A stretch of 64,000 bases of DNA from Staphylococcus phage SAC, in sequence record OR234014.1. One strand, given 5' to 3'. The translations under genes were made by a program, and so were the position numbers. Of this stretch, positions 34,125 through 62,236 are shown piece by piece. The first letter of the stretch is position 1; every line of letters begins with the position of its first letter. A model generated the notes under the pieces. The model searched no databases. It saw only the letters and a program-made list of their open reading frames with translations, and was not told the DNA's origin.

Positions 34125-34464
34125 AAGGATGTGCTCCCTCAAATACAATCTTAATCCTGTGTACATCATTTGATACATAGATATCTGAGTAATGTATTGT
34201 TTTAGGTACTTTGACTTCAGAACCATTATAACGTACTAAAGAGTAACCTCCTGCCCATCTTGACTCTACATGCTCAATATACATAACTGTAGAATCAGTG
34301 TAAGGAAATCCCGACTCTTCTACAATGATAGGCTCCTTATTATCTCTAGCTTTTTTAAAACGTTCTGCTATTTCAATATAAGGTAAGGGCAATACATCAT
34401 TTGTATTAGCCCTACCTAATGCTTCTTTAACACTATTAATATTTCTATCTATTAGATTATTCAT
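34111..34464 (-). CDS. hypothetical protein
   Basis: 117-aa ORF. Confidence 0.5.
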   Translation of the reverse strand: MNNLIDRNINSVKEALGRANTNDVLPLPYIEIAERFKKARDNKEPIIVEESGFPYTDSTVMYIEHVESRWAGGYSLVRYNGSEVKVPKTIHYSDIYVSNDVHRIKIVFEGAHPYEES

Positions 34465-35479
34465 TTACATCTTCCTTAGTCTCTTTATTAGTAGAGCTAA
34501 GCTCTTCGTAGTAATCTTGTAATGCTTTAAACTCTTCTAATTGAGTAGTGTCTACTTTTGTATTGTTTAAAGGTGCATACTTATGAGGGAAATTCTCGTG
34601 GTAAACTCTACTAAATAATTCTAAGTATAATTCATGGTTGTCCATTAATGTCGGTACCCAATCTTTATCATATTTTTTAATTTCTTCACCATTTAACGTA
34701 ACATAATTACGCCATGTTCCTTTAGTAATTAAACCACGCTCAACGGCTTCTTTATAGATAGTATGATAAGGGTCAACACCGTTTAATTGAATAGTATCTT
34801 CATCAGAACCTACTTCATAACCTGATAATAAATCAACTTCCGCTTTTTGACCAGGTCTAGATAGCTTAGACTTCTTAGTCTCAATACGCATAACATGACC
34901 TTTATACGTAGGTTTACCTGTCATAGCATCATTCTGTTTTAATTCTGATTCTTTACCTTTAGATACTTTAATACGTAAACTAGCACCATGTTCAAAAGCT
35001 CTTCCTCCTGTAGACTTAATAGGGTCATCATAAGGATTACTCATATTTAAATTATCACGTGCTTGGTTAATAACAATTAATCCTGTATTTGTATCATTAA
35101 GCTTAGGTGAAATAGCATTTACTACTTTTTGTGTACTTGTCGCTTTCGTTCCAAGTTTTTTATGGTCTACTCCTGCATCAATTTCATCTTGTGTACGTGT
35201 AGCTCCTAGGGAATCCCAAATGAACAAAATAGGTACGCCTGGTGCTTTCTCATTAAATGTATCAATCCAGTATTCTAACTCTTTACCTACGGTTTCTACT
35301 GATAGTTCAGTAACATTTTTAAGTCTACCTTCACCTGACTGTATTGAGAACAATTTAGATACGTCTACACCTAACTGTTCCATACGTTGGTTATCCGCTG
35401 TTCCTTCAATGTCAATCCAAACTGTAATAACTCCTAATTGTGTTGCTACTCTAGATAAGTGTACTGCAAAAGTCGATTT
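34457..35479 (-). CDS. RecA/UvsX-like recombinase, exon 2
   Basis: Frame opens at 35479 with 'KSTFAVHLSRVATQLGVITVWIDIEGTADNQRMEQLGVDV...', which matches RecA '[31 protein letters not shown]'. Confidence 0.8.
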   Translation of the reverse strand, partial: KSTFAVHLSRVATQLGVITVWIDIEGTADNQRMEQLGVDVSKLFSIQSGEGRLKNVTELSVETVGKELEYWIDTFNEKAPGVPILFIWDSLGATRTQDEIDAGVDHKKLGTKATSTQKVVNAISPKLNDTNTGLIVINQARDNLNMSNPYDDPIKSTGGRAFEHGASLRIKVSKGKESELKQNDAMTGKPTYKGHVMRIETKKSKLSRPGQKAEVDLLSGYEVGSDEDTIQLNGVDPYHTIYKEAVERGLITKGTWRNYVTLNGEEIKKYDKDWVPTLMDNHELYLELFSRVYHENFPHKYAPLNNTKVDTTQLEEFKALQDYYEELSSTNKETKEDVNE

Positions 35480-36839
35480 CAGTTACTACCCCTAGTTTCC
35501 TAGTACTTTAACACTAACTTAATAGTGGGCTTAGACTATATCTTTAATTGCCTGGTATGCAAGTTTTTGTTTTCGGTCTATATGAATATTATTATCTCGA
35601 TATAATGTTTTCATTAATTTTTTAGCTTTTTTACCTGTATAACCTATTCTATAAGAGGTAGAAGTTTTAGATATTGTAGGACATTTAAAACCTAATAAGT
35701 CTTCAATCCAACTACCTACTTCTTTTAAAAATTCAGGATGATTGTTAACTAAAGTTATTGACCATCTATTATTATAACATCCAATAGAACCATCACCATC
35801 AAACAATCCTCTTAAGTAATGTTTCCTTAAATCATAAGGTATGTCTTGTGTTAACCAATCTGTTTTTTTAGTTTTCATAGGTATTATACCATATTTAGCT
35901 AAATCATTACATAGTTTTTCATCGGTAACACTAAAAGTATACGTAGAATTTTCATTTTTTATATAATCTCTTTTTCTATGAGATTCATAAATTTTACTGT
36001 CTGAATTCAATTCTTTTTGAACTCTTTCTACTATTTCTTTATCAATTAACTCTAGTGTTAAGTAACATTGACCTTCTCTTCTATATCTAACACAACCGTC
36101 AGCCATCAATAAACCTAAAATATATGCTTTCTCTTCAGTATCAATTACTTCAAAGAAATCTTTATTAATATTTCTATTAACTCTCCTAGGTTGATAGTAA
36201 GATGTATCAATACCAAAGTCTCTTAATATTTTACTTATCTCTCTTGCATGTGTTGTATAGACTGCTTTTATCTCTGCAATAGTCATAGACTCCTCAGTGT
36301 ACATTCTTAAAATATCTTGTTTTTGTTTACTAGTCCATCTTCTCTTGCTATTTGTGTCAATATTAAACTCATCTAGTACTTTTTTAATTGTAAAGTAATG
36401 TGCATTATACTTTTTTTGTATTTCACTAAATTTCTTACCTTCTTGAAAGGATTTCACTATATCTTGTTTTTCTTCATTAGACCATACTCGTTTTACCATA
36501 TTATACTACTCTCCATTTTAAATAGATTTCGTAGGCAATTCCCACGTACTTCGGTTTCCCTACTCTACTCAGTTACTCACTAATACTTCTCAATATTAGC
36601 TACCTTTTCGATAGTCGTTGAACCTTCTCCATTTTACAGGAGCTTGGATGCTGATTACCTACACTATATAATATAACAGTTTAATAACTCGTTATACCAT
36701 ATAACTCATATACTTGTTATTTTTAACATTCACGCTTACCGTTTCCAGTTACGTTGTAGTTAACAAGTCTTTAAGGCTTCCCAGCAATTCACGTGGATTT
36801 GTAATAACTCATTATAAGCCATTGTGGCTATTTAAGGTA
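35480..36839 (-). mobile_element. group I intron in the recA-like gene (1360 nt) carrying a LAGLIDADG homing endonuclease gene
   Basis: Splits Walker A: exon 1 ends ...YGLTGSG(GGT) and exon 2 starts KSTF. The upstream exon ends in U and the intron ends in G. GC-richer structured flanks. Core motif 'aagatatagtct' about 55 nt from the 3' end. Confidence 0.8.
35531..36499 (-). CDS. LAGLIDADG homing endonuclease (double-motif), intron-encoded
   Basis: Two motifs: 'YILGLLMADGCV' and 'LRGLFDGDGSI'. Confidence 0.8.
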   Translation of the reverse strand: MVKRVWSNEEKQDIVKSFQEGKKFSEIQKKYNAHYFTIKKVLDEFNIDTNSKRRWTSKQKQDILRMYTEESMTIAEIKAVYTTHAREISKILRDFGIDTSYYQPRRVNRNINKDFFEVIDTEEKAYILGLLMADGCVRYRREGQCYLTLELIDKEIVERVQKELNSDSKIYESHRKRDYIKNENSTYTFSVTDEKLCNDLAKYGIIPMKTKKTDWLTQDIPYDLRKHYLRGLFDGDGSIGCYNNRWSITLVNNHPEFLKEVGSWIEDLLGFKCPTISKTSTSYRIGYTGKKAKKLMKTLYRDNNIHIDRKQKLAYQAIKDIV

Positions 36840-37052
36840 ACCACTACCAGTTAATCCGTAAACTTCTGTAAGTCTTCCTAGAGGAATACCTCCACCTAAA
36901 ATTCTATCATATTGTGGAATCATAGTAGGAATGATATTCTTAATATCTGCTCTATTACTATCTGATAGTAAAGTTAAACCTAATTCTTTACCTAAGTCAA
37001 TAGTATTTAAATTTGTAGTATCTACTTCTTTACCTTTTTTTGCTCTAGCCAT
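36840..37052 (-). CDS. RecA/UvsX-like recombinase, exon 1
   Basis: 'IPTMIPQYDRILGGGIPLGRLTEVYGLTGSG' is RecA '[31 protein letters not shown]'. The track ORF reads through into the intron (YLK*). Confidence 0.8.
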
Positions 37053-37114
37053 TATATCATCCTTTTATATGAAATTTAAATAAAAGAGTGCTAAGATAGC
37101 ACTCTATAAAGTTA

Positions 37115-38867: not shown

Positions 38868-39557
38868 CTATATAACTTTGAAACTGTCAATATTATTTTT
38901 AATATATTCCGTTTTTTGTTTGTACTGCTCTTCAGTTAGTTTATCTGATTCATAGTAGTCTTTGATTTGTTGTAAGGCTAATTTATACTTAATATATCCT
39001 TTATACGAATTAAATTGCTTTATTAACTCTTCGTTGTATTCTACCATATCATTATATGTTAATCCTATCTCTATATCTGCATCTATAGGATACTGTCTTA
39101 ACTCACCATTAATTTTTATTTTTAAGAAATCATAAGGAAGGTTCTCCATTACATGGACAATAACTTTAGCCATAATATTAACTTCTTCAGGAGGTGAGTC
39201 TACTACAATACTATCATGAACAGTAGCTACTAACTTCGATTTCATATTCTTATTTTGAATAAAGTCGTCAATATAAGTAATAGCCATGTTAGTAAGGTAA
39301 CCACCTGTACCTTGAATAATCGTGTTAAAGGACTGTCTAAGACCCTCATTTTTAATCTTTTTATCTCTAGATTGTGCTGAGTGTATATATCTTCTGTGTC
39401 CATTCATTGTTTCTACATATCCATGTTTTTGAACAAACTCATGAGTTTCATCTATAGACTTCTTAATAGCAGGTTTATTAGAATAAAACTTATTAAATAT
39501 TTCAGTAGCTTCATCAACTGTCATATTATTTTTACCTGCAAACGAAAACTCTGACTC
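38868..39557 (-). CDS. DNA polymerase (family A), exon 2
   Basis: Frame opens at 39557 with 'ESEFSFAGKNNMTVDEATEIF', parallel to Pol I 'MSAFGLARQLNIPRKEAQKY'. Motif C is 'LVATVHDSIVVD'. Confidence 0.8.
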   Translation of the reverse strand, partial: ESEFSFAGKNNMTVDEATEIFNKFYSNKPAIKKSIDETHEFVQKHGYVETMNGHRRYIHSAQSRDKKIKNEGLRQSFNTIIQGTGGYLTNMAITYIDDFIQNKNMKSKLVATVHDSIVVDSPPEEVNIMAKVIVHVMENLPYDFLKIKINGELRQYPIDADIEIGLTYNDMVEYNEELIKQFNSYKGYIKYKLALQQIKDYYESDKLTEEQYKQKTEYIKNNIDSFKVI

Positions 39558-40637
39558 CGTTTATACCCTCGGTTTCCCGATATTTATTAGGGGACTAGAC
39601 TATATCTTAAGTAAATACGTTACTATCTACTTCTAGGCTATTCCATGTAGGTATGAGCTACATGTACTCTACTCGGTTATATTGCAATAAGCCCTCTCGG
39701 CGTAAAGCTCACCTTTTGATAGTCGTTCGATAAAATAATTTAAGTGTTTAAGTGTAATCAAATCGTTCTCTTTTCTCTATTTTGAATGTAATCCCATAAC
39801 AATCTTCACCGGTTTCCATTTTTCTAAAGTTAGTGCCTGACGTAGGTATATTTAGTCTCTTTAGTAGCTTAGTTTTTACTCTATCATAATCAATTTCCAC
39901 ATGATTCTTATAAGCAACATAGTGAGGTGCATAAAGTTTAGAAGGGTTTTCTACAGGTTGATAATTATATTCTTGTAGTGTTTTAAAAACCCAGTTCTTA
40001 TGATGTTTTCTTTCCCCTCTAAGAACTGCAGAAATATGGCTTTGAATTAAGTTATGTTCCTTAGCAAATTTAGACTGATTGAAGAATATATATTCTTTAC
40101 CTGTAGGGTCTATACCTAATATCTTTTTACTTCTTGAAGGTACAAATCCTAAGTTCTCTTCTCTAGTAGCCCATTTACATTTATCTAAGCTATATACTTT
40201 ATTACCTAGTTCTTTAATATCCTTATCTAACACTAACTCACCATTTTTATACTTCTCTAAACTCCAACCATCAATTAACTCTACATCCTTAAGAAAGTTA
40301 TTAAAATTATGCCATCTATCGTCTACTGTTATTCCTAGTAATCCATAATATTTATATTCCTTACATTTAGGATTATAACATCTGTCTATCATATGAGACC
40401 ATACATGAGCTAATTTAGAATATAGCTTATTGTGATTATATCTTTCTCCTATTTTAAATTCTATTTAAATCATCCTTACTTATTAAATTACACTTAAATT
40501 ATTCTACACAGGATTAGCATTTTAAAGCCTTCCCTGTTAGCATAGTTCTTAACTACCATTTCCTGTAGCTCCTAACGTGAACTATACACCCTATACTCAA
40601 TAGGTTTACCTAGTTTTACTACGGCTATATTTTGTTA
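39558..40637 (-). mobile_element. group I intron in the DNA polymerase gene (about 1080 nt) carrying an HNH-type endonuclease gene
   Basis: Inserted inside polymerase motif B (RQASKAVAFGLIYG | ESEFSFA). Exon 1 ends in U (TAC GGT) and the intron ends in G. Core motif 'aagatatagtct' about 50 nt from the 3' end. Confidence 0.75.
39748..40392 (-). CDS. intron-encoded homing endonuclease (HNH_3-like with C-terminal NUMOD/IENR-type HTH)
   Basis: 'LDKCKWATREENLGF' resembles the HNH_3 'NLRWVTRSEN' motif. 'FFNQSKFAKEHNLIQSHISAVLRGERKHHKNWVF' is typical of the C-terminal DNA-binding module of phage HNH/GIY endonucleases. Confidence 0.5.
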   Translation of the reverse strand: MIDRCYNPKCKEYKYYGLLGITVDDRWHNFNNFLKDVELIDGWSLEKYKNGELVLDKDIKELGNKVYSLDKCKWATREENLGFVPSRSKKILGIDPTGKEYIFFNQSKFAKEHNLIQSHISAVLRGERKHHKNWVFKTLQEYNYQPVENPSKLYAPHYVAYKNHVEIDYDRVKTKLLKRLNIPTSGTNFRKMETGEDCYGITFKIEKRERFDYT

Positions 40638-43160
40638 ACCGTAAATTAAACCAAAGGCTACAGCTTTACTGGCTTGTCTTTCTTCTGCTGTTACGTCCTT
40701 CATACTTTTACCATACATAATACTTGCCGTATTTTTATGAATATCTTGTCCTGTTAAAAACATCTCTAACATTTCTTTATCATCTGTATATAGTGCCGTA
40801 ATACGCATCTCTAAGGCACTATAGTCGGCTTGTAAAATTACACCATCTTTAAATCTAGAGATAAAAGAACGTTTAATAGGGTGGTGATAATCAAACTTAT
40901 TTATATCAGATGTATGAGCAGGTAATTGTTGCATATTAATGTTTGAACTACTTAATCGACCTGATGCAGTTCCTGTACTATTATAGTTACCATGTAAATT
41001 ATGTGTATTCTTATTTACTCTTTTAGGTAATTTCTTAGTAAAAGAATTTCTTTTAGTTTGCAAAGAGGCATAATAAATAAGTAAGTCTAGTAGCTTTTTA
41101 TTATCTTCATTCTCAACCAAAGATAATGCCATCTTTATAGACTTAGTATCTGTTTTGTAGTCTTTCCATGATAACTCATCTTCTTTAGTACTATTACTGA
41201 AAGGTTTATCCTTAACTGTCTCTTTACTATAAGGTAACTGTATACCTAAAATGCTATATAATACTTCACCTTTATGGTCTCCTGAGCTTGGTTTGAACTT
41301 CCAACCTTCATCTTTAAATTTAGCTCTATACTCATGTATTTCTTTGTCTCTATCAGATGGTTTCTTCTCATGTTCTGCTAGGGCTAGTTGGTATAAATTA
41401 TACCTAGTTTCTTCAAATTCTTGGATAGCCCAATGCTCTCTAATTTCTTGGTGGGTTTTTTCCATCTCATTAATATAAAATTCATCATTTTTATGCATGT
41501 ATTCTAAGTCACAATGTAAACCATTTGATTGTATTCTAGCTAATGTTCTAATTAATCTAGGGTAACTTATTGACATTAAGTTCAATGCTTTAGGTCTATT
41601 TTGTTCTTTTAACTTTTCAATAACATCACAGTATATTCTTCTACAGACATCGGTGTCACCACTGGCATAAGGATGCATAAGCTCTAATGGAATCCAATCA
41701 TAATTAAAGTCACCTCCATCTACCTCATTAATAACTTTAGTATTGTCCTTATACGTGTTAATTAAATTAATAGATGTACCTAATACATAATCTTTAGCTT
41801 TGTTAGATAAACTCATATACTCGGGTGATGATTCGGCTACTTCTTTAAATTCAGAATCCATAAGCATATTCTTTGTAATAACCTCAGGTGTTAGTTTTAA
41901 CTCTAAGTATCTTTTTTGCTCTTCTGTGATACCATAATACTTATCTTCATCTGTTAGTTCTATATCAATGTTATCGAGTTTATTTTTCAACCAAGTATCA
42001 TACTCATTTGATTTTATGTTATATTCTTTCTTAGCAACTTTTTTATTTTCTTTTTTAATCTCTTTTAGTTTATCTGATAAGAATCTTAGTAGCTTCAATA
42101 CATACCACTCTTTAAAATCTTCAAGAGGTTTGTCATATCCTCCTACATCTGTTACTTCGTAAGCAAGGTCTGATAATCTTAGAGACTCTGCTTGTTCTTG
42201 TGTTACAGCTAAATACCAACCTACCTTAGTGTCTTGATTATTTTCAAAGTCTGTGAAACCTTGTGTTGTCATTAGAAAATTTATATCATAAGTAGCATTA
42301 TGTAGTACCTTAATGTCTTCTTTGCTAGCTACCCATTCTTTTAATAAGGAAAGAATTTCATCAATATCTTGTTGTCCATTCTCCCAAGTAAAGTCTGATT
42401 TATATAAAGGTATTGTAACACCTTGACCATTTTCCCAACTCATTGATAATACTAAGGGTTTACTTCCTTCTCTATCAGGACTAAGTGAGTTAGTTTCTAA
42501 ATCCCATGCGGTAATGTCTACACCGTCATGATTATCATTCTTTACTTCTTTATTAAATATTTCTCTTACACGCTCAATACTTGTAACAAGTTCATACTTA
42601 ACTTCTTTAGGTTTAAATACGTCTTCACCTTGTTCTACAAACTTACCTAATAACTTAAGGTCAGCTACTACATGACGCTCACTATTCTTATTAACGTTTG
42701 TGTACTCTATGCTATAAGTAGGTAATACCCAAACATCATGTTTTTTATCTTCACTAGTAATAGTTACTTTATTAGGTACACCTCTAACTTTACCGATAGC
42801 TGATACATTTAATAAATATTTAACCCCTAGCTTACCTAAAGGAATAATAATATCGTACTTATTGTTTATGATTATTTGACTCATTCTTTCATAGTAAGGT
42901 TTAACTTCAGATAACTTAACGTCTTGGTACTTAATTGTTTTACCATAGTTATTCTTAATAGGTGTAGGTACTTTAGGATATAAAAAATCAATGTCATAAT
43001 CCTTTGTGCTCCTATCTCTATTAATACCAGAAATATTAGACAATAGTTGTTTTAGTACTCTACCATTAGGTGTATTTAATAGTACATTCTTAACACTACC
43101 ATCATTACTAACTGAAAAGTGTTCCTCTCTGATATAGTCGTATAAAATTAAAACTTTCAT
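40638..43160 (-). CDS. DNA polymerase (family A) with 3'-5' exonuclease domain, exon 1
   Basis: Exo I 'ITAWDLETNSL' and Exo III 'YASGDTDVCRRIY'. Pol motif A 'ILQADYSALEMRI' and motif B 'RQASKAVAFGLIYG'. Confidence 0.85.
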
Positions 43161-45000: not shown

Positions 45001-45936
45001 TTAGGCTTCACAATTAATACAAATTTTAGATAAATTGAATTGTTGTGATGCATTTGTACCATGTTGATAATACAATGACTTAATACCATTAGACCATGCA
45101 AAGAGATAAAGTTCATTTAACTCCTCTGCTGTAACATGTTTAGGGTTAATCATAATGTTTATAGATTGTCCTTGGTCAATATATTTTTGTCTTGTAGAAG
45201 CTTGGTCTAATATATTATATTGATTAATTTCACCATATGTTTTAAATACTTCCTTTTCATAATCACTTAAGAAAGTTAGGTGTTGAACGGAACCATCATT
45301 GTCCCTAATACTCTCAATAACTTTTTTATTGTCCTTTCCTTTTTCTTTTAATAGTCTTTTAAGGTAAGGATTAATCATAGTTTTCTTTACTTTAGCAGTG
45401 TCTACAACGTAATAATTACTCATAAAAGGTTCAATTGATTTAGAAACTTGACCTAGGATAAATGAGCTCGAAGTCGTAGGAGCTACCGCCATCAAACACG
45501 AATTCCTTCTACCATACCCTTTAAGAATAGTAGGCTCTCCATAAAGTTTAGCTAACTGCTCACTAGCTTTATAAGTTTTTTCTTTTAATAATTTAAATAT
45601 CTCTTCATTAATTTGACTAGCTTTAATACTTTCAAAAGGTATGAGTTTTGATTGTAGGTATGAATGATATCCAAGAACGCCTATTCCTAAGGCTCTGTTC
45701 TCAACAGAAAAGTTATAAGCTCTCTCCATAAATTTAAATGCTTCTTGTTTATCTTTTTCAGCTGAGTCTCTTAGATATTCTAAGTCTCTAATAAACTCAG
45801 ACATAACAGCATCTAAAAAGTAAACAAGTGTCTCTACAGCATCCGTGTGTTTCCATTCATCATACTTAACAAGGTTCATACTAGATAGGTCACATACAAA
45901 TGACCAATCTTCTTTATTAGGTAACATAATTTCACT
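45001..45936 (-). CDS. nrdE: ribonucleotide reductase large subunit NrdE-like, exon 2
   Basis: Frame opens with 'SEIMLPNKEDWSFVCDLSSMNL', which is NrdE 'SEILQVN...CNLGSLNL'. C-terminal Cys pair 'KICINCEA'. Confidence 0.8.
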   Translation of the reverse strand, partial: SEIMLPNKEDWSFVCDLSSMNLVKYDEWKHTDAVETLVYFLDAVMSEFIRDLEYLRDSAEKDKQEAFKFMERAYNFSVENRALGIGVLGYHSYLQSKLIPFESIKASQINEEIFKLLKEKTYKASEQLAKLYGEPTILKGYGRRNSCLMAVAPTTSSSFILGQVSKSIEPFMSNYYVVDTAKVKKTMINPYLKRLLKEKGKDNKKVIESIRDNDGSVQHLTFLSDYEKEVFKTYGEINQYNILDQASTRQKYIDQGQSINIMINPKHVTAEELNELYLFAWSNGIKSLYYQHGTNASQQFNLSKICINCEA

Positions 45937-46775
45937 CCTACATGTTCAATAGTGGTCGTTAATCACTACCAGTTCTCTAATTAACAATATTTATAGTTAG
46001 GGAATTTTTCAGAATTACATCTTCTGGTTAATGTATTTCTGTTTATTCCTAGCTCTTCAGAGCATATACCCATATTTTTATAAACTACGCCATCAACAAT
46101 AACTTTTTTAGCATTAGCGCTTTCTTTACCATACATCGGATTGTTTTTTCCTCGTCTATCCATTATATTCCACCCAAAACCTATCTCCATATTATAACCT
46201 TTTTTTACAGATTCGTACATGTCTATAAAAATTTGCTCTACCATGTAAGCAAACTTTTTATCCTCTGTACTAAAAGTGTATAATTCTTCTACATAAAAAT
46301 TCTCTTCACCATGTTTCATCATTGATTGGTGTAAATTAGTTGTTGAGCCTATCTTAGCTTTTCTAATATGATTTTTAAATCTATGTTGAACTGTTTTTGA
46401 TGTAATTCCGATGTATATTTTATTATTGTTTTTGTTTGTAATTTTATAAATATGGTACTCCATTTTCGACCCTCTTAATTATTATTGTTAATATGAACTT
46501 CTATATGTTTCCATATAGAGCAGACTATATCATCTTCCTTAATAAGGAAGTCCACCATTTCGATTTAAATAAGATTTACTTGATTATTACTCAATACTTA
46601 TACCACTTGGCTCTAACCTTATCCCTTCACTTATGTGAATAGGTTACGGATAGTCGTTAGGCATTTACAGATTTATAATCTGATTTAGCACGGTGTTGTC
46701 GTATATTTTAACTTAGATATTCACCGTTTAGATGGATTTTTCGATAGTAATTACTTACTAAAGGTGCAAATTTTT
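45937..46775 (-). mobile_element. group I intron in nrdE (839 nt) carrying a GIY-YIG homing endonuclease gene
   Basis: Splits the active-site 'SNLC|SEI'. Exon 1 ends TGT (U) and the intron ends ...GTAGG (G). The 'gatatagtct' core (46531-46545, minus) is 5' of the ORF. Confidence 0.8.
45981..46463 (-). CDS. GIY-YIG homing endonuclease, intron-encoded
   Basis: 'HIYKITNKNNNKIYIGITSKTVQHRFKNH' is the GIY-(10)-YIG motif with the conserved R. Confidence 0.8.
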   Translation of the reverse strand: MEYHIYKITNKNNNKIYIGITSKTVQHRFKNHIRKAKIGSTTNLHQSMMKHGEENFYVEELYTFSTEDKKFAYMVEQIFIDMYESVKKGYNMEIGFGWNIMDRRGKNNPMYGKESANAKKVIVDGVVYKNMGICSEELGINRNTLTRRCNSEKFPNYKYC

Positions 46776-47522
46776 ACACAAATTTGAGTTATTAATAGTC
46801 AATCCTTTGTCTTTATATACATCTACTGTATTACTATTTGCATTATCATGAAAGAAGATATAGGGGTATCCTATTTGTGTTCTTCTTGTTAATACTTTAG
46901 CCCATGTTTTTCTTTTTTCTTTGTCCCCATTAATCATGTCTAATAACCAATCATCAGTAACTGTTACCGCATGTGTTAAGTTTTGAATTGGATTACCTTC
47001 GGTACCAATCTCTAAAAACTCGTCAATATCTTTGTGTTCTATAGGTAGATAAGGGCTAAATCTTCCTCTTCTTTGGCTACCCTGACTTATCGTATCTGTC
47101 ATTTGCTCAAATAGCTTCATAAAATGAACGGAACCACTTGTCAGTCCATTATCAGTGATTTCTGAGCCTCTAGGTCTGATGTTACCGAAGTAACCACTTG
47201 TACCACCACCGTATTTACTCATCATACCTACTTCACTAGCAGTATTAAGTATCGATGGTATAGTATCATCTACCCAACTACCAAAACAACTAATACTAAA
47301 TCCTCTATCTTTCCCGAAATTAGACCATATAGGACTGGATAAGGAATAATAACCTTTACTCATATAATCATAAAACTTGTCAGAAAACCCATCAATACCT
47401 AAAATATCTTCAGCGTAATCTGCAATATCTTTAATTCTTTGTTCTGGTGTTTCACCATCACTTAAATAACCACGTTCTAGAAAAACTCTAGAATCATTAT
47501 TTAACCATTCAAAATTACTCAT
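46776..47522 (-). CDS. nrdE: ribonucleotide reductase large subunit NrdE-like, exon 1 (N-terminally short)
   Basis: 'SCFGSWVDDT' loop, 'GGGTSGYFGNIRPRGSEI', 'GYPYIFFHDNAN', and ends 'SNLC'. It starts about 95-140 aa later than typical NrdE. Confidence 0.8.
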
Positions 47523-60240: not shown

Positions 60241-61551
60241 CTACTTTCCTAATTCTTTAATTTCAAATTTTTCTTCTTCATATATTTTTCTACGCTCATT
60301 AGAATGTTTATATAAAAACTTATGTGTCATATCATTAAAATCAAATATCTGTGTTGTATTATCTTCTTTCTTTTTACGTAACGCACGACCTACACGTTGT
60401 AGTGTTTGTCGTAAAGATTTACCACCTGCACCTAGGATTAATGAACGAATACCACTGATATCAACACCCTCATCAATAAGGCTTGTAGCAATCATAACTT
60501 TAAGTTTACCATTACGCATTTCATCTAACTTTTGTTTACGCATATCCGACTCTATTTCACCATGTAAAAAGAAATTCTCTACACCCATTTCATTCAACAT
60601 AGTGGATAGTATTTCACCATGCTCAACAAAATTAATAATAATAAGCGTAGCTTTATCTTGATTATACCACTTAGCTGTTAGTTTTGCAATAAGTTTATTT
60701 CTAAACTCGTTATGTACAATACCTTTATTATATGCATCCCTGTAATCCTTAATATTATCTATATCATCAGGGTTAGCAATAGGGATAATATTTATTGTAG
60801 GTCTAGCTGAATAGCCATTCTCGATTAAAAACTCATTAGATGTTCTTACAATAATATCTCCGAATAATGCTTGCATACGCATCCATAGTAGCTCATCTTT
60901 CATGTCTATGGAGCCTGTTAGTGCTATCCTGTATAGTGCATTCTCACAGGACATTAAACTTGTATACCATGAATCTGATTTACTGTGATGTGCTTCATCA
61001 ACTATCATTACAGCTATAGAGTCTAGGAACTCACGCATTTTATGATATTTATCATAGCTCTTTTGATTTTTCTTTCTTACTTCTTTTTGGAAAATAACAT
61101 TATGATTGTTTAATGCCATTAATACTTCAGCATCCGTCTTTGAATTATGATAAATATCTTGAAGTATATCAAGCACATTCTGCTCTACTTTAGTTTTAGG
61201 TGTTGTACTTTCTAATAATAACTTAAGTAACCTTTTTTGATTTTTACCACCTTCAAATTTAGGAAGTATCTCTTTAGCTATCTTTTTACTTAAGTTTACT
61301 TTAGCAGATACTTTTACTCCTTCTGTAGGGTCTTTTAAGTTAGAGTTAACAGTAGGAATCATAACTACAGTTACTTGTTTAACATCAAACTTACCAGAAC
61401 CTACTTTACCTACTGATATATTCAATCGTTCACTTAAACGGTCAGCAGATTGATTAAAAATCTCAGTAGAACTTGTAAAAAAAGCTACACGCTCTCCTTT
61501 TTCTAGTTGTGGTAATAGTTGGTCTATGATACCGCTAGCAACCTCTGTTTT
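60241..61551 (-). CDS. SF2 (DEAH-box) helicase, exon 2
   Basis: 'MIVDEAHHS' (motif II) and 'LQRVGRALRKKK' (motif VI). The track's 'M' at 61554 is a TTG inside the intron 3' end. Confidence 0.8.
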   Translation of the reverse strand, partial: KTEVASGIIDQLLPQLEKGERVAFFTSSTEIFNQSADRLSERLNISVGKVGSGKFDVKQVTVVMIPTVNSNLKDPTEGVKVSAKVNLSKKIAKEILPKFEGGKNQKRLLKLLLESTTPKTKVEQNVLDILQDIYHNSKTDAEVLMALNNHNVIFQKEVRKKNQKSYDKYHKMREFLDSIAVMIVDEAHHSKSDSWYTSLMSCENALYRIALTGSIDMKDELLWMRMQALFGDIIVRTSNEFLIENGYSARPTINIIPIANPDDIDNIKDYRDAYNKGIVHNEFRNKLIAKLTAKWYNQDKATLIIINFVEHGEILSTMLNEMGVENFFLHGEIESDMRKQKLDEMRNGKLKVMIATSLIDEGVDISGIRSLILGAGGKSLRQTLQRVGRALRKKKEDNTTQIFDFNDMTHKFLYKHSNERRKIYEEEKFEIKELGK

Positions 61552-61798
61552 CAATTATGTTACGATTAGGTTCGTTACTCCTAACCTTCTTGTAGTCTCC
61601 TACAAAGTTCAGACTATATCTTAACCATATCTAATGAGACTTAGGTTCTCCCTGTTTCCAATCACTTGATTGTACATAATAGTCGTTGCACCTTCCTAGT
61701 AATTTATTAAGCTTGGCTCATGATTGTCTCAAATGAGAGAGTTCCCATGAATTAAAGGAGTTACACTTATAATATTTCTACTATAAGGGGCAAAATTT
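61552..61798 (-). mobile_element. small ORF-less group I intron (about 247 nt) in the helicase gene
   Basis: Splits Walker A 'ATNAGK|TEV'. Exon 1 ends GGT (U) and the intron ends ...TTG (G). GC-richer structured sequence with the 'aagatatagtct' core about 60 nt from the 3' end. In-frame stops in the intervening sequence. Confidence 0.7.
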
Positions 61799-62236
61799 AC
61801 CTGCATTGGTAGCTTGCTTACATATACCATTATAATTGACTAAACTATTAAACACAGCTTCATACTGATAGTCACGTAATGTAATCTTACCTACGTTATT
61901 ATCTAGTAGCTGTATTTCATCATCAATATCTTCTTCAGCTAAAAAGCTTTCAGATTTTTCATCAATAATTTCGTATTGAAAGTTATGTCTTGATTGTAAC
62001 TCACCTAGTAATGTTATCATCTTAGGTAACAACCCACTAGGGAATTTGTTCTCAGCATAATCGTAGAAATCCACATAACCATCCCACACACCTCGTTTAA
62101 AAGCTAAGCTATGTTGATAGCCCTCTTTCTTAGCTCCTAACGTTTTATGAACACGCTTAAGTATGATATCTTTAATATACCCGTCACTTTCATCAAAATC
62201 TACATATGTATATATATTCTGTTGTCTTAATTGCAT
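61799..62236 (-). CDS. SF2 helicase, exon 1
   Basis: 'LRDYQYEAV' (Q-motif/Ia-like) and Walker A start 'ATNAG'. Confidence 0.75.

Follow-up and report, generated by a model that had tools for sequence, protein, structure and literature searches.

The recA/UvsX-like recombinase gene of Staphylococcus phage SAC very probably carries a mobile group I intron of the subgroup IA type, which parts the G codon from the K codon in Walker A (the P-loop) and encodes a LAGLIDADG homing endonuclease. The gene lies in a 64,000-nucleotide (nt) stretch of sequence record OR234014.1, analysed at its full length and called the window here. Over 34400..37100 it matches Staphylococcus phage StAP1 (KX532239; Herelleviridae, Twortvirinae, Silviavirus) at 100% identity and phages Romulus and Remus at 99%. 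A preliminary sequence-only reading, made from the letters and their open reading frames (ORFs), had proposed a group I intron at this place. The recombinase exons, the intron and the endonuclease ORF are all on the minus strand:

36840..37052, minus strand: exon 1 of the recA/UvsX-like recombinase gene, 71 codons, ending ...GLTGSG; its last base is the U of GGU
35480..36839, minus strand: predicted group I intron, 1,360 nt, beginning UACCUUAAAUAGCC, with the G at 35480 as its terminal base
35531..36499, minus strand: LAGLIDADG homing-endonuclease ORF, 322 amino acids (aa), two helix-turn-helix (HTH) units followed by two LAGLIDADG subdomains
34457..35479, minus strand: recombinase exon 2, opening AAA UCG ACU (KST of Walker A), 340 codons plus stop

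The exon 1 ORF (36828..37052, minus strand) reads MARAKKG...LTEVYGLTGSG and then YLK-stop, in agreement with the early statement that it halts after ...TEVYGLTGSG. The continuation of Walker A, KSTFAVH, was likewise correctly placed 1.36 kb downstream in the same orientation; the insert measures exactly 1,360 nt. Translation of 35500..34457 (minus strand) gives stop codons and then KSTFAVHLSRVATQLG... to the end of the 340-codon exon, the frame of exon 2 resuming at 35479 as KSTFAVHLSRV.... The intron (36839..35480) has TACCTTAAATAGCC as its first letters and ...GTAGTAACTG as its last (its 3′ end is also given as ...GUAGUAACUG, with the final ...AACUG at 35480). The last base of exon 1 is T/U at 36840 and the last base of the intron is G at 35480, just as group I boundaries had been described for this element.

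The intron-less alleles of phages phiIPLA-RODI (RODI) and phiIBB-SEP1 (SEP1) have GGT|AAA at the matching point, which fixes the intron boundaries as exact. A target sequence without the intron reads ...GGATTAACTGGTAGTGGTAAATCGACTTTTGCAGTACAC... across the insertion point, and the SEP1-type allele reads GGTTCAGGTAAATCC. A boundary shifted by one base was rejected, since the junction would then be GGG where the intron-less alleles have GGT. Spliced in silico, the recombinase is a protein of 411 aa that matches Pfam RecA at 6e-27, is colinear with the uninterrupted RODI recombinase at 79% identity without a gap at the junction, and aligns with the solved Escherichia coli RecA across the P-loop; the alignment of the spliced product to RecA/UvsX, proposed beforehand as a check, thus came out in favour of splicing. 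Together the boundaries and these alignments mean that the intron interrupts Walker A between the G and K codons (GLTGSG|KST), which is the P-loop split that had been proposed.

Base composition was rejected as evidence. The insert had been called GC-richer (guanine plus cytosine), and this is wrong for the intron as a whole, at 29.5% below both exon 1 (31.0%) and exon 2 (33.9%), with 29.3% for the whole window; it is right for the ribozyme segments only, the 5′ part having 34.4% and the 3′ part 37.0%, against 27.2% in the ORF.

An insert in a P-loop that encodes a LAGLIDADG protein could also be an intein, translated in frame and removed by protein splicing, and some records do say 'intein DOD homing endonuclease'. 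LAGLIDADG (DOD) domains are known in inteins, the structural matches of the ORF product include PI-PfuI and the TliVMA intein, and conserved ATPase motifs are typical intein sites. The reading frames here do not allow it: the exon 1 frame stops three codons past the junction, 340 nt of non-coding structured RNA precede an ORF that has its own ATG and Shine-Dalgarno sequence, and the ORF ends 51 nt short of exon 2, whose own frame has stops just upstream. Pfam shows no Hint or intein-splicing domain, and covariation at the RNA level has no role in inteins. With stops on both sides of the ORF and no Hint domain, we regard an intein as excluded for all practical purposes.

The Rfam family model Intron_gpI (RF00028) has a gathering score of 50 bits, a detection threshold and not a defining property of the class, and the locus stayed below it, so that the fold had to be demonstrated by comparative analysis. 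The orthologous intron was taken from 13 phage records (Silviavirus, Kayvirus, Sepunavirus, Baoshanvirus and Alsa_3), with lengths of 1,360-1,376 nt and ORFs of 322-329 aa; the ORF interior was removed and the 11 distinct intron sequences were aligned. A structure built by hand, with 18 helices and 93 pairs, was scored across these 11 introns. Standard pairs fill 97.7% of cells; sliding the 3′ partners by 1-3 columns lowers this to 29-43%. Both-sided changes occur in 22 pairs, a count attained in 0/500 shuffles. The compensatory changes are located in P2, P3, P4, P5a, P5b, P6, P7.1, P7.2, P8 and P9; four of the six pairs of P3 are compensated (CCACG/CGUGG, CCAUG/CAUGG, CUCCG/CGGAG), and P5 is conserved. 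The first 313 nt of the intron fold with z = -3.3, better than 100/100 shuffles, and their minimum-energy fold yields P4, P5, P5a, P5b, P6 and P7.1.

The compensatory changes support a predicted core of P3-P9 with a P3/P7 pseudoknot. With the U·G pair of P1 and the terminal G, this bears out the assignment to group I; the sequence-only reading had allowed for there being no group I fold, and the comparative structure test found one. The parts of the predicted ribozyme, all on the minus strand, are:

36824..36844, minus strand: P1, GUGGU + UA (36844..36838) with UAGCCAC (36830..36824), U·G at the splice site
36804..36822, minus strand: P2 hairpin, closing pair A-U / G-C / G-U
36542..36796, minus strand: span of P3, CCACGU (36796..36791) with ACGUGG (36547..36542)
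36649..36786, minus strand: P4-P5 domain with the ~110-nt P5a/P5b/P5c extension, GAAA loop on P5b
36669..36678, minus strand: late-promoter -10 motif TGTTATATTA, in the P5c 3′ strand, 170 nt upstream of the endonuclease ATG
36623..36647, minus strand: P6, two scored helices
36612..36616, minus strand: P7 5′ strand GACUA, partner at 35538..35534, invariant
36553..36600, minus strand: P7.1 (36600..36579, GAGA loop) and P7.2 (36560..36553)
36533..36540, minus strand: P8 5′ strand AAUUGCCU, partner AGGCAAUU at 35553..35546, with the ORF within the P8 loop
35534..35553, minus strand: P8 3′ strand (35553..35546), J8/7 (AAGAUA) and P7 3′ strand (UAGUC, 35538..35534)
35480..35529, minus strand: P9.0, P9 and P9.1 (GAAA loop), three scored helices, and the terminal G

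In P1 the U at 36840 pairs with G, and 11/11 sequences pair at all seven positions. The guide sequence GCCAC is invariant and its five pairs with the exon never vary; more distant intron copies retain both AGTGGT| and GCCAC. The UAG that stops the exon 1 frame (36830..36828) overlaps the guide. P3 encloses P4, P5, P5a/b/c, P6, the P7 5′ strand, P7.1 and P7.2. P7.1 has 9 bp with three covarying pairs and P7.2 has four covarying pairs, and P7 (GACUA/UAGUC) matches the Rfam J8/7-P7 consensus AAGAUAUAGUCU. Extra helices such as P7.1 and P7.2, placed between P7 and P3′, are the mark of subgroup IA, of which T4 td and the introns of Twort are examples; by this mark of the general Michel-Westhof scheme, applied by hand, the intron is IA2-like.

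Some other pairings were weighed along the way. A different register of P2 (columns 37-40 with 45-48) is broken in Alsa_3, whereas columns 30-34 with 44-48 pair in 11/11 sequences. A terminator-like hairpin at 36546..36530 (CGUGGG-AAUUG-CCUACG), which competes with P3-3′ and P8-5′, is by eye absent from MR003 and MSA6, whereas P3 covaries, and we treat it as chance or a minor alternative fold. No convincing P10 pairing of the start of exon 2 (AAAUCG) with the P1 loop was found.

A further 4-bp hairpin at 36836..36848 (minus strand) joins exon positions -9 to -6 with intron positions +1 to +4 and holds the splice site in its loop. It reads GGUA/UACC here and GGCA/UGCC in Kayvirus and Sepunavirus, with a compensated G-C to C-G change in Alsa_3. 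Its covariation is weak (95.5% of cells pair, 2/4 pairs are compensated, and 9/500 shuffles reach its score), and one pair is broken in phage 812 and one in Alsa_3. Such a hairpin would be in competition with P1 and could link exon 1 translation to splicing.

Several points weigh against an intron and have to be set beside this evidence. The whole-window Rfam scan at the gathering score found only an intron at 61589..61808 and had no match at the recombinase locus, with the same outcome at E<=0.01. When the search was restricted to the region, Intron_gpI gave two partial matches, 36790..36599 (P3-P6 and the P7 5′ strand; 23.8 bits, E=0.0017) and 35603..35513 (J8/7 (AAGAUAUAGUCU), the P7 3′ strand and P9; 17.6 bits); they are colinear with the model, and their 23.8 and 17.6 bits stand against a cut-off of 50. 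The Infernal/Rfam scan suggested at the outset did not reach the gathering score and gave two colinear sub-threshold pieces. We attribute this to the 969-nt ORF in P8 (with the ~110-nt P5 extension), which splits the match; without an ORF, an intron at the same site reaches 99 bits, and a Serratia-phage intron with identical core blocks reaches 61.5 bits. P1, P7, P9.0 and P9.1 show zero compensatory changes among the 11 introns, covariation being uninformative there, and P7, P9.0 and P9.1 are fully invariant in this set. The 11 introns are related, with a mean column identity of 90%, and several of the compensatory changes in the 22 pairs may be inherited rather than independent. No RT-PCR (reverse-transcription PCR), junction-spanning reads, or splicing or cleavage assays of this intron were found in the searchable literature. 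Peptides of both Rec halves were detected in virions of phage fRuSau02 (PMC5618024), which does not prove a continuous polypeptide. RNA-seq of Kayvirus 515A1 did not see a clear coverage step at the intron-internal promoter (PMC7698491).

Some of these same points are what one would expect if a free-standing endonuclease gene had simply been inserted, with no splicing and with recombinase fragments that are pseudogene remnants or separate polypeptides: the Rfam model stays below threshold, many annotations have two separate 'recombinase' coding sequences (CDSs), and proteomics is blind to the difference between one continuous chain and two fragments. An unspliced insertion does not account for a group I core preserved complete in the flanking RNA, with 22 pairs compensated over four phage genera, or for a guide that matches the exon end in every copy. 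Both exons are intact, at 79% protein identity to the uninterrupted homologue, and a Walker A severed at G/K would presumably not bind ATP as two chains. RNA covariation, preserved exons and the P-loop position make a dead or split gene very improbable, and we prefer a spliced group I intron.

The 322-aa ORF has a Shine-Dalgarno sequence, GGAGAG, at 36514..36509, 9 nt upstream of its ATG. The two-motif LAGLIDADG protein noticed at first sight is confirmed: motif 1 is YILGLLMADGCV (YILGLLMADG, D134) and motif 2 is LRGLFDGDGSI, and Pfam matches are to LAGLIDADG_3 (3.7e-16, two stretches), LAGLIDADG_WhiA and Hom_end, with a match to PHROG 4645 'endonuclease' at 7e-137. In an alignment of 57 homologues, motif 1 has G129, D134 and G135 and motif 2 has R230, G231, D234 and G237 as invariant residues, and D236 is conserved in >=90%; with D134 invariant and D236 nearly so, the metal-binding acids are kept. 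The AlphaFold2 model (predicted local distance difference test, pLDDT, 91.3) has three-helix units at residues 8-44 and 57-94, and residues 122-322 form two alpha-beta-beta-alpha-beta-beta-alpha subdomains. Foldseek against the PDB finds I-Tsp061I (1.1e-9), bI3 maturase, I-AniI, I-SceI and the I-OnuI family, all at probability 1.00; a PDB sequence search with the ORF found no LAGLIDADG chain at E<=1 and two chance-level matches, to the N-terminal region only. By its model the product is a monomeric LAGLIDADG enzyme of the double-motif kind, preceded at its N-terminus by two HTH units.

Residues 1-108 of the ORF (36176..36499, minus strand) hold these tandem HTH units, WSNEEKQDIVKSFQEGKKFSEIQKKYNAHYFTIKKVLDEFNID and WTSKQKQDILRMYTEESMTIAEIKAVYTTHAREISKILRDFGID, which match PHROG DNA-binding and HNH-endonuclease accessory families and, weakly, Pfam HTH_Tnp_1. 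The combination of HTH with LAGLIDADG_3 is common among remote homologues.

The other end of the ORF runs into the ribozyme. Its last seven codons and stop are CAG GCA AUU AAA GAU AUA GUC UAA (Q A I K D I V), and these seven codons double as P8-3′, J8/7 and P7-3′. Because the end of the ORF encodes core strands, translation of the ORF and folding of the core would be mutually exclusive on one RNA at any one time, so that the same molecule could not serve both simultaneously.

Database homologues of the endonuclease ORF form a graded series. Directly downstream of the ORF, three homologues at 45-54% identity have an exon 2 with a RecA_N match and |AAATCG as its start. Exon 1 is present in two of their contigs (L021 and L023), where it has 69-77 aa and AGTGGT| as its end, and the intron after it contains the GCCAC guide; the third contig (L025) stops before exon 1. 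Such constancy of site is the pattern expected for a homing endonuclease dedicated to one target. Intron-less (RODI, SEP1 and many others) and intron-bearing alleles coexist within Twortvirinae, and the ORF is intact in every examined copy of this type; these copies come from at least four genera of Twortvirinae and from metagenomic relatives that are 45% identical. Intact ORFs, always at one site, suggest continued homing.

The ribozyme might still splice after mobility was lost, with a LAGLIDADG protein that is inactive as a nuclease or serves only as a maturase. Among the nearest solved folds are bI3 maturase and I-AniI, an enzyme with both functions, the ORF overlaps P8-3′, J8/7 and P7-3′, and introns with a missing or degraded ORF sit at the same site in V1SA20, Koomba-kaat_1 and V1SA19, as a cycle of endonuclease loss would have it. 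The invariance of D134 and the presence of D236 in >=90% of the 57 homologues tell against inactivity, as do the intact ORFs at one site in all copies examined, from at least four genera. We consider loss of mobility improbable and retain a mobile intron as the better account.

For a mobile intron of this build, the fold and general knowledge of group I introns suggest the following course. The primary transcript would fold into the group I core, the GCCAC guide pairing with the end of exon 1, GUGGU, so that a U·G pair marks the 5′ splice site. That site would be attacked by free guanosine sitting in P7; the terminal G (35480) would then take the P7 pocket, exon 1 would attack the 3′ splice site, and ligation would restore GGU|AAA and the 411-aa recombinase. 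A ribosome on exon 1 would halt three codons into the intron, at the UAG overlapping the guide. By analogy with its family, the endonuclease would cut intron-less recombinase alleles at or near G|K in a mixed infection, and repair off the intron-bearing genome would copy the intron in, which is homing.

The endonuclease may have a supply of its own. It has its own ribosome-binding site, and the late-promoter motif could give a late, non-splicing endonuclease transcript. The motif TGTTATATTA is conserved in 11/11 aligned introns, Alsa_3 having the known variant TGCTATATTA. Promoter pL154 of Kayvirus 515A1 is listed as GAAAACTTTT TGTTATATTA TATAGTGTAG (PMC7698491); this sequence is the corresponding stretch of the orthologous intron, and the motif here is its homologue, with putative promoter activity in this intron. 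A transcript starting there would lack P1-P5, would be unable to splice and would serve only as endonuclease mRNA. A scan for sigma-70-like promoters gave nine sites, compared with 15.4 in shuffles, and nothing convincing.

In Twortvirinae-like genomes at least three different introns occur at the G|K site of the recombinase gene, the StAP1 type being one of them. A 257-nt ORF-less intron occupies it in Silviavirus V1SA20 (L003, 1383..1617 region) and Koomba-kaat_1 (L004), with 99 bits in Rfam. A third type, in metagenomic contigs (L021/L025), has the 3′ end ...CATAACATAA(C/A)TG and a LAGLIDADG homologue ~45% identical, and V1SA19 (L014) has a 3′ end of similar kind, ...CGTAACATAACTG. The recombinase gene of V1SA19 and that of Alsa_3 are broken into three pieces, implying that a second intron lies further downstream.

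Serratia jumbo phages (Moabitevirus: Totoro, Yaphecito, BUCT660, Kodama) have a group I intron that adjoins or lies inside gene fragments of RNA polymerase beta′ (L015 2382..2676 and L016 2392..2701, both minus strand; Rfam 59-62 bits). This intron and the StAP1 recA intron share identical blocks of 51/51 nt (36606..36656) and 33/33 nt (36727..36759), and the rest differs; the shared blocks are P5b, and P4-3′ through P6 to P7-5′. The P6 hairpin shared with the Serratia intron varies even between Staphylococcus copies, so that the identity looks like module exchange and not general conservation. A tentative and on balance doubtful idea is that G|K is a shared landing site of intron lineages that replace each other and that the ribozymes are mosaics across very distant phages. 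If the cause were recent recombination between introns of phages with Gram-positive and with Gram-negative hosts, the shuffling of ribozyme modules would have left a trace of unusual directness here.

Other genes in the window are also split. The ORF-less group I intron at 61589..61808 (minus strand; Rfam Intron_gpI 91 bits, E=5e-22) sits between an ORF at 61781..62236 and a helicase-like ORF at 60241..61554 (Helicase_C, ResIII), and it fits a report that the Silviavirus helicase gene is split (PMC7497331). In the ribonucleotide reductase gene (45001..47522, minus strand) a GIY-YIG ORF with an I-TevI-type DNA-binding domain (45981..46463) lies between the parts of the gene, and group-I-like blocks at 46492..46534 and 45942..45985 are 82-91% similar to the V1SA20 intron. 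Rfam at E<=0.01 finds nothing at 45001..47522, and the element is probably another ORF-bearing intron overlooked by the Rfam model. The gene for a family A DNA polymerase (38868..43160, minus strand) is split into 40635..43160 and 38868..39524, with an ORF that has an I-HmuI NUMOD-like domain (39748..40392) between the parts; an intein has also been reported in the Silviavirus DNA polymerase (PMC7497331).

For annotation, SAP1_109 and SAP1_111, the two CDSs labelled 'recombinase' or 'hypothetical' in StAP1-like records, should be joined into one RecA/UvsX-like protein of 411 aa, and the 322-aa ORF should be labelled as an intron-encoded LAGLIDADG homing endonuclease. These phages are candidates for phage therapy, which gives correct gene models some practical value. 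ORF-bearing group I introns can escape the curated threshold of Rfam, and ORF-aware or comparative detection is needed. The intron is a further case in which a selfish element targets the best-conserved codons of a gene for DNA metabolism, with no new principle.

Vandersteegen 2013 and Lobocka 2012 are said to contain the first catalogues of these introns. The element has already been annotated and published for this phage group, and the copy described here is an allele of it. In GenBank the StAP1 ORF is annotated 'intron-encoded putative endonuclease', and 'similar to recombinase A' and 'intron-encoded endonuclease' stand as features in the Romulus record. The rec CDS of MSA6 is given there in joined form, together with I-MsaII, and the record of phage 812 names RecA812 and I-812II. 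A group I intron encoding I-MsaII was predicted in the RecA-like recombinase gene of fRuSau02 (PMC5618024), the split genes of Silviavirus include a DNA-repair protein gene (PMC7497331), and the 812 recA intron was listed in 2008 (PMC2504315). What the present copy adds is the correction of the gene model and the side observations.

The closest known systems are these same elements in relatives. Romulus/Remus, 812 (I-812II) and MSA6/fRuSau02/515A1 (I-MsaII) have the intron in the same gene at the same G|K insertion point. Nucleotide identity is 99% over the locus for Romulus and 85% over the 5′ ribozyme part for the Kayvirus copies, and I-812II of phage 812 is 91% identical to the 322-aa ORF, with the P8 location shared. 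The Silviavirus and Kayvirus copies share the intron-internal late-promoter motif and differ by point changes only, including compensated ones in P3, P5a/b, P6, P7.1 and P7.2.

At a greater distance, T4 td/nrdB/sunY and Twort orf142 and nrdE (IA2) share P7.1/P7.2 between P7 and P3′. IA2 phage introns also share the J8/7-P7 consensus AAGAUAUAGUC, a stop codon soon after the 5′ splice site and a DNA-metabolism host gene, and nucleotide similarity is 80-90% in some blocks, as in the comparison with the nrdE intron of Twort. The intron here differs from them in its LAGLIDADG endonuclease, in an ORF in P8 that runs into P7-3′, and in the long P5 extension; phage introns mostly have GIY-YIG, HNH, PD-(D/E)xK or EDxHD enzymes (PMC3984707).

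Phage 0305phi8-36 (I-Bth0305I) and the recA introns of Bacillus anthracis and B. cereus likewise combine a group I intron, a RecA-family gene and a phage or host of the Firmicutes (PMC3239194, PMC2504315). In these introns of a B. thuringiensis phage and of Bacillus, as here, the endonuclease target is a conserved functional motif (PMC3239194, PMC2504315), although for I-Bth0305I the discussion concerns the L2 DNA-binding loop and not the P-loop (PMC3239194). I-Bth0305I is an EDxHD/Vsr-like homodimer and so differs in endonuclease family, and the ribozyme lineage is different as well.

The predicted enzyme itself compares best with I-Tsp061I, I-AniI, I-SceI and I-OnuI, which have two alpha-beta-beta-alpha-beta-beta-alpha subdomains per chain and LAGLIDADG helices with acidic ends, as in the model. 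Sequence identity to these monomeric LAGLIDADG enzymes is only 11-21%, with no PDB chain found by sequence at E<0.1, and the N-terminal HTH pair (residues 8-94) sets the protein apart from the solved intron-encoded enzymes, which are without such a pair.

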